Source of the DNA: Okamejei kenojei
Taxonomy: Eukaryota
Direction of reading: 5' to 3'
DNA length: 64,000 nt
NCBI GenBank assembly: GCA_035221665.1
Contig: CM069146.1
Location: 43,648,001 to 43,712,000, forward strand
Each line of letters opens with the position of its first letter. The first letter of the stretch is position 1. A model generated the notes under the pieces. That model saw only the letters and a program-made list of their open reading frames with translations, searched no databases and was not told where the DNA came from. Of this stretch, positions 45,173 through 54,659 are shown in pieces. Both the position numbers and the translations under genes were made by a program.

Positions 45173-45291
45173 ATCGATCTCTGTTCATCGATGTGGACTA
45201 ACCTGCGGAGTGTTTCCAGAACTTTTTTATTTTTATTCAGATTGCGGGCATCAGATTTCCTTTGATTTTTCAAGGTGAATTTGGAGATTCA

Positions 45292-45528
45292 AGGGCCTGT
45301 CCCACTTGGCGATTTTGTTCGGCGACTGCCGGCGCCATTTCAGGGTCGCCGAAAGATCTTGAACATTTCAAAATCGAGCGGCGAGAAAAAAAATGTTGCG
45401 ACACTTGTGGAAATAGCGCGCGTCAATACGTCACCACGCCGCGCCACACCACGACTTTTTTGAAGACCTGAAATGTCAGTCAATGATGACGGCACTCGCC
45501 GAAACAATCGCCAAGTGGGACAGACCCT
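45292..45528. mobile_element. PIF/Harbinger-type MITE, 237 bp
   Basis: 23-bp TIR AGGG(C/T)CTGTCCCACTTGGCGATT (22/23 match); 3-bp TSD TCA at 45289-45291 and 45529-45531. Confidence 0.9.
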
Positions 45529-46039
45529 TCATTCTACTGAGCTGTTCCAAACCCCATTCAGGTGCCAGCATAGCTTCTTATTGATCTTTGTGTCTGAGTA
45601 TTCAAATTGGGAAAGAGTGGCTCAAGGAATGAAGGGTGTAGTGAATGAATTATTGTATTCATTGAATGCCCTTTGCAACCAAGCCTGGAGAAGCTTTGAG
45701 AAAATTATGCAAAATTTTCCAATGATTTATACATGGGTTTCAAGGACATAAGGTCCACGCAAGCATTAAGCCAAATCAGTTTACTACAAACCTATATCAG
45801 TGCCATGTACGTTGAAATCTCAAGTGGTGGAACAGTTGGACAAGCTTCAGTCTCATGGTGTGTTAATCAAAACTGCAAAGCGAGTGGACAGCACCCATCG
45901 CTGGGTTGCGAAAAGAAAACAAAACTGTCTAACTGCAGACAACAAACAGTACATATTGCCCATGTAATAGGATCTGTACAGAGAGTGAGCAGGAGCCAAG
46001 ATCTTTGAGCATCCCCTCTTGAAGTTGGCTCCAAAAGAT

Positions 46040-47593: not shown

Positions 47594-47949
47594 CAGGGCT
47601 GCCAACGCTCAAGCGTGAGAATCACGCATTTGAAGAAACTCTCACACCCTCACTCTGATCAGAAATTTCTCACGCTCTGTGGTGAGAAATTCTGTGATCA
47701 TCGAAAATGTCAAAACTCAGATAAACTTCATGGTCCGCGGGTGTTGGAGAGCCGGGACTGAGGGAGGGATGGAAGCAGAACCAGCGGCGGGGGACAGATG
47801 CGGACGGAGAGCCGGGGCTGGCAAGTGTTTGCGGGGCCTGCGAGTCGCTCGCTGCAGCTCCGGCCACGGAGCAGTGCAAGAGTCCCGGGCCGATCGGAGG
47901 CGTCGGAAGCTGCCGCGAGAGTCTCTGTGCCGATGGGGCAGAGACTCTC
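47594..47949 (+). mobile_element. DNA-transposon-like (hAT-like) left end, copy A, carrying a degenerate 5' part of the TDP2-like exon
   Basis: Starts CAGGGCTGCCAAC; (T)CTCACGC/GCGTGAGA subterminal repeats; colinear with 49673-49980; no matching right end seen. Confidence 0.6.
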
Positions 47950-49672
47950 AAAGGGAGGTAGAGAGAGAGAGGGAGGAGACAGGGGGGAGGAGAGGGGGGG
48001 GGGGGGTGACAGGAGAGAGAGGGGAGAGACAGAGGGGGGTGTTATGGGGAGAGAGAAGAGGGGGGGGGGAGAGGGGAGGAGTGTGAGGTGGAGAGGGGGG
48101 GAAGAGAGAGAGCGAAGAAAGAGGGAAGACGAGAGAGGGAGTGGAGAGGCTATGAGAGAATGGGGAGAGAGGGGGGGGAAAGAGAGAGCGAGGGGAAAGG
48201 CGGAAAGAGAAAAAAACGGGGGAAAGAGAGGGAGATGGGGGGCAAAGAGAAATAGGAGCTAGAGGAGAAAGAGAGAGGGGGAGAGAGCAAGGGGCCAGAG
48301 TGAGGTGGGAGGGAGAAATGGGGGAGAGAGAGGGGGAGAGAGAGGATGAGAGACGGATGGTGAGGGGAGGAGGGAAGAGAGGAGAGGAGTGAGAGAGGAA
48401 AGAGAGGAGGGAGTGTGAGAGAGGGGAAGAGAGAATGTGGAGAGGGAGAGAGATGGGGGAGAGAGAGGGGAGAGAGAGGAGGGAGTGAGAGAAAAAAAGA
48501 GAGAGAGAGGGGAAGCGAGGGGGAGAGAGAGGAGGAGAGAGGAAGAGGGGGAGAGAGAGGAGAGAGAGAGTGGGAGGGGGAGAGAGAGGAGAAGAGAGAG
48601 AGAGAGGGGAGTGAGAGGGGAGAGAGAGGGGGAGAGAGAGGGGGAGAAAGAGAGAGAGGGGAGGAGGAGAGAGAGGGGGAGAGGAGGAGAGGGGAGAGAG
48701 GGAGAGGGGGCGGGGATGNNNNNNNNNNNNNNNNNNNNNNNNNNNNNNNNNNNNNNNNNNNNNNNNNNNNNNNNNNNNNNNNNNNNNNNNNNNNNNNNNN
48801 NNNNNNNNNNNNNNNNNNNNNNNNNNNNNNNNNNNNNNNNNNNNNNGAGGGGGAGAGAGAGGGGAGAGGAGAGAGAGAGACAGGGAAGAAGAGGGAGGGG
48901 GAAGAGAGAGAGAATGGGGGAGAGAGAGAGGAGAGAGAGGAGAGGGGGGAGAGAGGAGAGAGAGGAGGGAGGAGAGGGGGGAGAGAAGAGAGGGGGAGAG
49001 GAGAGAGGAGGGAGGGGGAGAGGGAGGGGAGTGAGTTTGAGGGGAGAGAGGAGAGGGAGAGAGAGAGAGGGGAGGGGAGAGGGGAGGGTGTGGGAGAGAG
49101 AGGGGGAGAGAGGGGAGAGGGGGAGAGAGGGGGAGAGAGGGGAGGTGAGGGGGGAGGGTGTGAGGGGGGAGAGTGAGGGGGAGAGAGAGAGGGGAGAGAG
49201 AGAGAGGAAGAGAGGGGAGGGGAGAAGGAGAGAGGNNNNNNNNNNNNNNNNNNNNNNNNNNNNNNNNNNNNNNNNNNNNNNNNNNNNNNNNNNNNNNNNN
49301 NNNNNNNNNNNNNNNNNNNNNNNNNNNNNNNNNNNNNNNNNNNNNNNNNNNNNNNNNNNNNNNNNNNNNNAGAGGGGGTGAGGAGGAGAGAGAGCAGAAG
49401 AGAGGGGGGAGAGAGAGGGATGAGAGTGAGCTGGGAGGGAGGGAGAGCGGGGGAGCAAAAGAGAGGTGAGGGGAGAGAGGAGGAGAGAGAGAGAGGGGGA
49501 CAGAGAGAGAGGAGAGAGTGGGGGAGAGTGAGAGGGGGAGAGAGAGGAGGGAGGAGAGAGAGAGGGAGAGAGAGAGAGAGGGGGAGAGAGAGAGGGGGCA
49601 GAGAGGGGGGGGAGAGAGGGGGGGTGGGGAGGGGGGGGAGAGAGAGAGGGGGGAGAGAGGGGGATAAAGAGG
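47950..49672. repeat. About 1.7-kb polypurine (G/A) low-complexity tract with two assembly gaps
   Basis: Almost purely G/A on the + strand; N runs at 48719-48845 and 49236-49370. Confidence 0.98.
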
Positions 49673-50165
49673 CAGGGCTGCCAACTCCCATGCACTGAGC
49701 GTGAGAAACACGCATTTCGCCAAATTCTCACGCTGATCACAAATTTCTCACGCTCTATTGTGAGAAATTCTGTGATGAACGAAAGATTTCAAAATTCATA
49801 TCAACTGCATGGGCCATGGGTGTTGGAAGCAGAAGCAGCGACGGGGACAGATGCGGACGGGGAGCGGGTCTAGCGAGTGTTTGCCGGGCTGGCGAGTCGC
49901 CCACTGCAGCTCCGACCATGGAGCAGCCTCAGTGCAAGGCGTCGGAAGAGTTGCGCCGCTGCCGTGAGAGTCTCTGTGCCACATTCGCCCAGGTGACCGG
50001 CATGGATCAGGCTGCTGCTCGGTGCATCCTGGAGGACAACCAGTGGCTGCTGGAAGTAAGTACCAGGCACTGGGTAGAAACGGTGGAAGATAGTGGACTT
50101 CAAGTGGGGGTGGTTGGAGAAAGCATCCTGCTTGCCTGCTCGATTTTCACTTACTGTAACTGCAG
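49673..50165 (+). mobile_element. DNA-transposon-like (hAT-like) left end, copy B, carrying the TDP2-like exon and intron start
   Basis: Starts CAGGGCTGCCAAC with the same subterminal repeats as copy A; right boundary unresolved. Confidence 0.6.
49918..50055 (+). pseudogene. TDP2: TDP2 (tyrosyl-DNA phosphodiesterase 2)-like exon-1 fragment encoding the N-terminal UBA-like domain
   Basis: ACCATGG Kozak; MEQPQCKASEELRRCRESLCATFAQVTGMDQAAARCILEDNQWLLE aligns with human TDP2 RRLLCVEFASVASCDAAVAQCFLAENDWEME (recalled sequence); phase-0 donor GTAAGT at 50056-50061; no downstream exon recognised. Confidence 0.75.
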
Positions 50166-50503
50166 GAAAAATGTTCCCGATGTTGGGGGAGTTCAGAACC
50201 AGGGGTCACAGTTTAAGAATAAGGGGTAGGCCAGTTAGGACTGAGATGAGGACAAACTTTCTTCACGAAGAGAGTTGTGACTCTGTAGAATTCTCTGCCA
50301 CGGAAGGCGGTGCAGGCCAATTCACTGGATGTTTTCAAGAGAGAGTTACATTTAGCTCACAAAATCAAGGGATATGGGGAAAAGGTGAAGAGGGACAGGA
50401 AAGAGGTACTGATTCTAGATGAATAGCCATGATCATATTGAATAGCAGTGCTGGCTCGAAGGGCCGATGGACTATTCCTGCACCTACTTTCTACGTTTCT
50501 ATG
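50166..50503 (+). mobile_element. CR1 3' fragment
   Basis: GKMFPMLGEFRTRGHSLRIRGRPVRTEMR plus 3'UTR and tttctacgtttctatg tail. Confidence 0.9.
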
Positions 50504-50573
50504 CTTGAGTATATGGCAATAAAACTCGATCACTTGATTTTGAAGCATTCATGCATGGTGGAGGTATAATGTG

Positions 50574-50765
50574 GTCATAGAGTGATACAGTGTGAAAACA
50601 GGCCCTTCAGCGCAACTTGCCCACACCCGCCAACATGTCCCAGCTACACTACCTACTTATTGGTCCATACCTCCAAACCTGTCCTATCCATGTATCAGTC
50701 TAACTGTTTCTTAAATGTTGGGATGGTCCCTGCCTCAACTACCTCTTCTCTGGCAAGCTTGTTCA
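50574..50765 (-). mobile_element. CR1 3' end fragment
   Basis: gtcatagagtgatacagtgtg..caggccctt..cctgcctcaactacctc. Confidence 0.8.
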
Positions 50766-53625: not shown

Positions 53626-54506
53626 TGACCCTTTGAAAATTGAATGCCATCCTTTTTTTTTCCAAATGCCAAACTTGAAGTCACAATTGTTTAAAGTCAT
53701 CGTTGTTTAAAGGATGTAAATCATGACATTGCTTTCTTGAAGAGCTACTTGAACCCAACCTGCGCGCTTCTAACATTCTGCTGTTGCATAGACTTGCGGC
53801 AGCATTGATACCCCCACGCTTGGCTGGTGCTATGCAATGGATTTCTCTTTGTAAGTTTCAGATCATCAGCAAGGTCATGTCAAAGGAATTGTGTTTATGG
53901 AGGAGGAAGGAAATCATTTTAAAAAAAACAGCAGTGCGAGGGAGAGAAGAAAGAGATCTCACGAGTTGCCAGCAGGCTTCGGCTCTGAGTACGGATTTGG
54001 TTGACCATGCTCTCGGGTTGTAGCCTCCTGAGTCTCTTTATACAACCGTAGCATCAGCTGACAGATGGAAGCATCTACAATTTGTGAAGCCTTATTCTGC
54101 ATCCAGGGCTGCCTGCAATGGATTTTAATTTAAATAAAATTACACGAAATTAGGTTTAACATAAGAAAACAATACCATAAGGGGCAGAACACATTAAAAC
54201 AACTAATTTTCAATATAATGTCTTTCTTGTTGAACCTTATGATGATTATGTAGGCAGCTGATCAAGGATTTTTTGAGGCGGTTTCTATGTATCAACAGTA
54301 TGCTCATTGACGGCAGTTCATGAACAAAAATGCCTGGTCAGCGATATTGGCATTCTGCAGAATTCTGATAGGAAATAGTCATAGATTATTCCAGCATGGG
54401 AACAGGCCCTTCAGCCCATCACATCCACACTGACCAAGATGCCTTTTCTAAGCTTGTCCCATTTGCTCTGAACTAGTCCCTAATGACCAGCCAAAATTTC
54501 TGATGG

Positions 54507-54659
54507 TCGACAAAAATGCTGGAGAAACTCAGCGGGTGAGGCAGCATCTTTGGAGTGAAGCCTATTTCCTTCGCTCCATAGATGTTGCCTCACCCACTGA
54601 GTTTCTCCAGCATTTTTGTCTACCTTCGATTTTCCAGCATCTGCAGTTCCTTCTTAAAC
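54507..54659. mobile_element. Penelope-derived fold-back insert with a 13-bp TSD
   Basis: AAATTTCTGATGG at 54494-54506 and 54660-54672; about 50-bp inverted arms. Confidence 0.88.

Follow-up and report, generated by a model that had tools for sequence, protein, structure and literature searches.

A 3′-broken copy of a skate transposon family that very probably spread TDP2 exon 1 as a passenger

We analyzed a 64,000-nucleotide stretch of contig CM069146.1 of Okamejei kenojei (positions 43,648,001 to 43,712,000 of the forward strand; hereafter, the window), in which two colinear units, A and B, both start with CAGGGCTGCCAAC (at 47594 and 49673) and align to each other with a mean column identity of 80% (Table 1). 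The two TIR-like starts, the ATGs, the 46-codon frame and the splice donor described in an initial annotation of this DNA were all found where it had placed them. In unit B the ATG sits in a Kozak context (ACCATGG) and the open codons end in DNQWLLE, a frame that takes in the N-terminal two thirds of the UBA profile, helix 3 being absent. Unit A has an ATG at 47769 and one extra G, with MEAEPAAG in one frame and TDADGEPGLASVCG in the next; its second ATG is mutated to ACG and it has no donor. The annotation had taken unit A to hold the original N-terminus, and this N-terminus indeed matches that of Rhinoraja TDP2 (P0006) and that of the oldest nested subfamily of the element described below. 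The GA-rich spacer between the units contains two N stretches (48719-48846 and 49236-49370). While unit B starts where annotated, its proposed end at 50165 did not hold, since homology to the family extends to 50764. The captured intron contains a common repeat fragment at about 50161-50500, which we take to be LINE-like, and a second repeat from 50578; it aligned to the native locus at 74.5% over 573 columns and at 87.8% over 189 columns. The right TIR anticipated by the annotation was found neither in the window nor in the next 10 kb, and the window held no further match to a full-length copy; since this copy has no right end or TSD, its family assignment is by homology only. A Pfam scan of 141 of the 371 non-repeat open frames revealed no host gene, and hence no acceptor exon, around the copy (one sub-threshold match). 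Two inverted repeats of the window, at 54502-54627 (59 bp, 8-nt gap) and 45285-45535 (30 bp, 191-nt gap), probably represent a small TIR element or widespread repeats.

Table 1. Layout of the transposon copy in the window
Feature	Position	Strand	Basis
Left end of outer transposon, 13-bp TIR (47594-47606) and CTCACGC/GCGTGAGA subterminal repeats	47594..47728	+	Same start in 18/20 long loci
Left-TIR remnant of inner (likely capturing) element, 12 bp	47729..47740	+	Matches CATGGGCCGCGGA end of stand-alone inner elements and nested forms
Unit A: piece of TDP2 5′ UTR and 5′ part of exon 1	47741..47931	+	Alignment with unit B
Fold-back where unit A breaks off, 15-bp arms, 3-nt loop	47917..47949	+	≤3 mismatches in 14/18 unit-A ends examined
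GA-rich spacer between units	47950..49672	+	GA-rich DNA 5′ of unit B in 20/20 loci
Second (internal) copy of outer left end	49673..49807	+	Spacer-to-TIR junction at 667 sites (≤3 mismatches), control 0
Second left-TIR remnant of inner element, 12 bp	49808..49819	+	Sequence match
Unit B: TDP2 exon 1 lacking its first ATG; open for 46 codons from ATG 49918	49820..50055	+	Protein and profile matches
Splice donor GTAAGT	50056..50061	+	RNA contigs leave element here
Captured start of TDP2 intron 1: unique part and two repeats in native order	50062..50764	+	Alignment to native locus
Breakpoint; remaining ~1.3 kb of element and both right ends missing	50765	.	Compared with full-length copy

The peptide of the exon matched the Pfam profile UBA_4 (E 4.8e-6; profile positions 2-30 of 43), had TDP2 chain 6q00_B as its only PDB match at E≤10, and was 74% and 69% identical to the TDP2 proteins of Leucoraja erinacea and Rhinoraja longicauda, bearing out the annotated TDP2 identity. 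The native gene lies on another contig (G000:C2) of the 2.76-Gb genome, with exon 1 at 145,913,232-145,913,501 and exon 2 from 145,920,003; its exons are 80-93% identical to the Leucoraja protein, and matches to exons 2-7 occur on C2 (10/10) and nowhere else in the genome. Because native TDP2 sits there, no exon 2 follows the window copy, as the annotation had observed for the following 14 kb. The cargo could be traced to about 145,913,060-145,914,231 of C2, where the element aligns, collinearly and in the same orientation, with native exon 1, unique DNA of the intron and two repeats within that intron. The end of the exon in the element is the native exon junction, and contigs with the native junction in RNA runs X2 and X9 leave the element at 50054-50055. 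Since intron 1 DNA is retained together with its native repeats, we have direct evidence that the TDP2 5′ end was captured at the DNA level, as had been proposed. All subfamilies of the element carry identical indels relative to the native locus, which points to one capture, and the TDP2 piece was likely captured once. A dimer copy and a duplicated 5′ fragment with a common left flank (G000:C2:145,887,230-145,890,374 and 145,896,089-145,896,396) lie 17-23 kb upstream of native exon 1 on the opposite strand, with no TSD; since this dimer belongs to a late subfamily, it is not the capture site. Near the native gene, the same contig holds further copies, in part broken, of the final TDP2 exon (145,731,333, 145,757,021 and 145,967,569; L045, L042 and L046/L048), and Amblyraja has an annotated TDP2-like paralogue that lacks the UBA (P0008).

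A 32-mer over the exon end and donor had 412 exact sites and 1,505 sites within three mismatches (native gene included), while the reversed 32-mer had none, so these sites are not due to chance. A DNA search with 49673-50165 returned 3,183 candidates, and the 40 that were scored were 94-100% identical over the full length. The 32-mer tolerance took in 47 of 60 sampled copies; a family total of roughly 1,900 copies is suggested, a rough figure from biased samples. Four structural subfamilies, including an oldest nested form, a single-unit form with the whole 84-codon exon and the dimer, were distinguished (30 copies picked by an intron motif, and others). Median divergence from consensus was 6.5% for old nested copies (n = 23), 6.5% for single units (n = 10) and 3.3% for intron-picked dimers (n = 6), with four old loci excluded by hand and three loci lacking the exon end; the dimer is the youngest subfamily. 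The donor is GTAGGT in older subfamilies and GTAAGT in the window. Four copies lie within 400 kb at G000:C1:199.3-199.7 Mb, inside a zinc-finger cluster and, among the copies listed, denser than elsewhere on C1; two of them face zinc-finger exons in head-to-head orientation over a distance of 14-16 kb.

In 20 long loci (3.0-5.1 kb), the left TIR was present upstream of the spacer (18/20), as was a reverse TIR ~1.6-3.4 kb downstream of unit B (18/20), with both in 17/20. Since the TIRs flank the whole dimer in these loci, the two units of the window are parts of one dimeric element and not the two separate insertions that had been proposed; the junction between the GA spacer and the second left end marks the dimer at 667 sites. 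The outer ends read CAG[A/G]GCTGCCAAC, with TIRs of 13-14 bp. The outer TSDs of dimers were perfect in 13 of 17 cases (7 bp in seven, 6 bp in five, 5 bp in one), had one mismatch in three and were absent in one, and old nested copies with both ends had perfect TSDs in 4/4, giving 17/21 perfect outer TSDs of 5-7 bp. Many copies with both TIRs and TSDs had been rightly predicted, whereas their expected 8-bp length was seen in none of the outer (0/21) or inner (0/11) elements with both ends, which have mostly 6-7 bp and 5 bp, respectively.

The annotation had regarded the CAGGGCTGCCAAC element as the capturing one, but we found a different candidate. This stand-alone inner element of ~1.9 kb has its own ends, CATGGGCCGCGGA/TCCGCGGCCCCTG, and 5-bp TSDs; none of its 30 loci had the outer TIR and 11 had both own ends within 3.4 kb. 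Among these 11, the TSD was a perfect 5 bp in four, had one mismatch in one, was a perfect 4 bp in one and was absent from five, while shuffled end pairs yielded no perfect 5-bp TSD (0/110). The native DNA in the inner element includes ~100 bp of 5′ flank and reaches 90 bp deeper into the intron than in the nested forms. Its ends are also present inside the oldest outer-TIR form, and the nesting site has a 5-bp duplication with one mismatch in one locus (L164) and the left flank only in another (L165). The 1.9-kb inner element is likely to have been the capturer and to have then inserted into the CAGGGCTGCCAAC element, which would be the second carrier. In searches aimed at close copies (40 scored in each), all loci carried TDP2 DNA, bar a few deleted ones, and no empty, pre-capture inner element was seen.

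We consider it very probable that the window holds a 3′-broken member of a non-autonomous cut-and-paste family whose cargo is exon 1 of TDP2 together with the beginning of intron 1, likely captured once at the DNA level and spread as a passenger. From the element structures we infer the following order of events. A 1.9-kb element with inner-type ends and 5-bp TSDs would have acquired ~1.2 kb of the TDP2 5′ end, after which one inner copy would have inserted into an element with outer-type ends and 6-7 bp TSDs. Internal deletions would then have produced the single-unit form, and a template switch duplicating the left part around the GA-rich spacer would have given rise to the younger dimer, as in the window. 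The ending of unit A at a 15-bp fold-back in 14/18 cases fits a replication template switch, for which the FoSTeST model, as outlined in parts of PMC8277862, serves as a comparison. Transposases supplied from elsewhere would mobilise the family, with the TDP2 cargo as passenger. For the host, copies probably act as occasional 5′ exons, in which the Kozak ATG and strong donor would splice to a downstream acceptor; the outcome would be a short upstream reading frame rather than a fusion with a ubiquitin-binding domain.

Sections of PMC3014272 give the hAT superfamily an 8-bp TSD and YARNG ends, and passages of PMC4455052 describe hAT families with a 7-bp TSD. The outer ends (CAGGG/CAGAG) fit YARNG, and the short TIRs and subterminal repeats are hAT-like; the inner right end (CAGGG) fits as well, whereas the inner left end (CATGG) does not, the canonical 8-bp TSD is absent (6-7 bp outer, 5 bp inner), and no transposase is linked to the family. 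We found no definition of hAT subgroups with 5-7 bp TSDs in the literature searched. No outer end in common was detected within 1.5 kb of the best 30 PF05699 loci (150 scored of 1,801 candidates; the query included inner subterminal DNA), and the filler DNA of the oldest nested form led to no autonomous partner. The P superfamily has TSDs of 7-8 bp, and the outer TSDs here are 6-7 bp; none of the 15 PF21789 loci shared an end with the family in the 1.5-kb flanks examined. These P-type transposase loci (L200-L214) have open frames of up to 566 codons and are 77-96% identical to one another. Two isolated loci with a hAT domain and open frames of 667 and 709 codons (L170 and L171), unlike the repeat clusters, are perhaps domesticated genes.

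Runs X2 and X9 contain the native exon 1-exon 2 junction and thus spliced RNA. In X2, a single contig of 93 nt (depth 9.6), which differs from the window at three positions, leaves the element at the donor and runs on into 28 letters of foreign sequence, consistent with the usable donor at 50055 that had been predicted. The 28 letters have 24 exact sites in G000 and 483 within two mismatches, and at all 24 exact sites a pyrimidine-rich tract and CAG precede the start of a C2H2 zinc-finger exon. Since the join coincides with both splice sites, splicing explains it most simply; the two sides have a few letters in common, so the chimeric contig could also stem from a template switch. The chimeric frame stops 13-47 codons on, before the zinc fingers, at 24/24 acceptor sites (in-frame fusion 0/24), and the source locus of the contig was not pinned among these 24. 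The zinc-finger exon family with this acceptor (L058-L063; 483 sites) is clustered on G000:C40 and near contig ends. In a poly-A run, X24 (~6% read), 83 reads covered 49800-50150 on both strands, level across the donor and with no loose end at the donor among the rows listed; such even two-strand coverage fits read-through.

The annotation had seen in the exon a functional exon-shuffling cassette, which would add a ubiquitin/SUMO-binding module to downstream exons and so create new proteins. Of 30 intron-picked copies, 11 are still open from the second ATG and have kept a GTRRGT donor, making the open frame of the window ordinary for a young copy, and the strengthening of the donor from GTAGGT to GTAAGT in younger subfamilies and the spliced junction to a foreign exon would also suit this reading. 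So would an automated Amblyraja radiata granzyme K-like model (P0007), which starts with an element-like, partly frameshifted piece of TDP2 exon 1, a start that is likely an annotation artefact or a chimeric transcript. The other matches of our three protein searches were TDP2, read-through frames and the paralogue, and no in-frame fusion protein occurred among their 3, 4 and 5 matches (P0009 left aside). The mobile exon lacks the complete three-helix UBA core (UBA_4 2-30 of 43); passages of PMC5137425 describe Phe62 in helix 3 of the TDP2 UBA as critical for ubiquitin binding and report that no SUMO binding was detected. Since helix 3 with Phe62 lies in exon 2 (which begins RALNSYF or TAVNSYF and contains ALNSYF), the exon is not the complete binding module it had been taken for. 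In 45 copies with the exon end, 156 nonsynonymous changes were observed where synonymous and intron rates, taken by mutation class, predict 158.9 (12 shared-variant columns dropped), and the copies appear to decay neutrally; the ratio against synonymous sites alone was 0.81, which leaves room for weak constraint. Together with the absence of an acceptor that reads through to the zinc fingers and the level X24 reads over exon and intron, this speaks against shuffling at the protein level, which we regard as improbable.

Recruitment of copies by the host as promoters or alternative first exons, for instance for C2H2 zinc-finger gene clusters, is a less remote but still doubtful reading. It could account for the exact donor-to-acceptor junction with a zinc-finger exon, and in older subfamilies ~100 bp of the native 5′ flank is retained; among bat Helitrons, according to parts of PMC4224331, those that captured the 5′ ends of genes have become the most numerous. 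One acceptor also has an intact, equally oriented copy 17 kb upstream (G000:C9:105,277), but this locus mismatches the contig at the first base of the acceptor and in the exon, and it is the only one of the 24 exact acceptors with a same-direction copy upstream (5.7-20 kb examined); chance alone would place a few copies in this way among 483 acceptors. Moreover, the dimer has lost most of the native 5′ flank. A broader reading is no less doubtful: that the family is a mobile first-exon kit of skates, with hundreds of copies that have a working Kozak ATG and a donor strengthened as the family spread, some being recruited as host promoters or first exons, notably in zinc-finger clusters, and that relay to a second transposon brought capture to Helitron scale in a cut-and-paste family of a vertebrate. 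A retroposed copy, paralogue or segmental duplicate of TDP2 that a transposon end adjoins by chance would recall the partial paralogue pieces near the native gene and Amblyraja P0008, and has next to no probability: the intron and native repeats are retained, copies are dispersed with differing flanks and TSDs, and the loci with TIRs and TSDs and the confinement of exons 2-7 to C2 (10/10) refute it.

The element also records an earlier state of the gene. The oldest nested consensus was compared with native exon 1 and its donor (G000:C2:145,913,232-145,913,507; L051:3032-3307), and over 240 columns we counted 23 A/T-to-G/C differences and one G/C-to-A/T difference; decay of CpG sites in the element could explain 9 of the 23. 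The proteins of Leucoraja and Rhinoraja have the residues of the element (MEQPQC, MDQ or MGDQ, CIL or CIM), so that most of the change falls on the native branch. The native intron 1 donor is GCAGGT, and the RNA junction in X2 shows this GC donor in use. The element preserves the ancestral TDP2 exon 1, while the native exon has moved to GC and to a GC donor; GC-biased gene conversion is a likely cause of this shift.

Of the features by which multicopy Pack-TIRs are recognized, the family has TIRs at both ends, distinct TSDs, a parental host locus and a kept intron, and, as in those described in sections of PMC8277862, the TIR element carries the 5′ end of a host gene as GC-rich cargo and forms chimeric transcripts with neighbours. 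According to those sections (Tan et al., 2021), multicopy Pack-TIRs numbered four cases in 100 animal genomes, capture being nearly always single-copy, and Pack-hAT-N8_XT carries the CAPSL 5′ UTR at three loci; the TDP2 family, in contrast, occupies ~1,500 sites, carries an entire coding exon along with its donor, and involves two carriers, one nested in the other, and four structural subfamilies. This is far above the copy numbers that those parts of the literature report for animal Pack-TIRs, although the supplements of PMC8277862 and PMC4224331 may list higher ones. We found no mention of sharks in the same sections of the survey (PMC8277862), whose pipeline very high-copy Pack-TIRs may have escaped as ordinary repeats. 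HelibatN3 and other bat Helitrons, as portrayed in parts of Thomas et al. (2014, PMC4224331), are alike in cargo and scale, but they are rolling-circle elements without TIRs (PMC3014272, in part), and a Helitron assignment was rejected since TIRs and TSDs of 5-7 bp are present in the TDP2 family. Plant Pack-MULEs and Pack-TYPE elements, as sketched in passages of PMC8277862, resemble it in DNA-level capture with introns and non-autonomous spread, whereas the TDP2 family resides in a vertebrate, has 13-14 bp TIRs and amplified one capture to very high copy. No published report joining TDP2, a transposon and skates was found among the matches listed; Repbase or Dfam may hold the family as a plain repeat.

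The path from one capture to ~1,500 sites through two nested carriers indicates that vertebrate cut-and-paste elements can do what bat Helitrons do. As a fossil of ancestral TDP2 exon 1, the family brings to light how strongly the native gene has shifted from AT to GC and that its donor has changed from GT to GC. Its copies can mislead gene annotation in skates, as P0007 illustrates, and they provide hundreds of natural replicates for testing whether a dispersed ATG-plus-donor exon rewires neighbouring transcripts.
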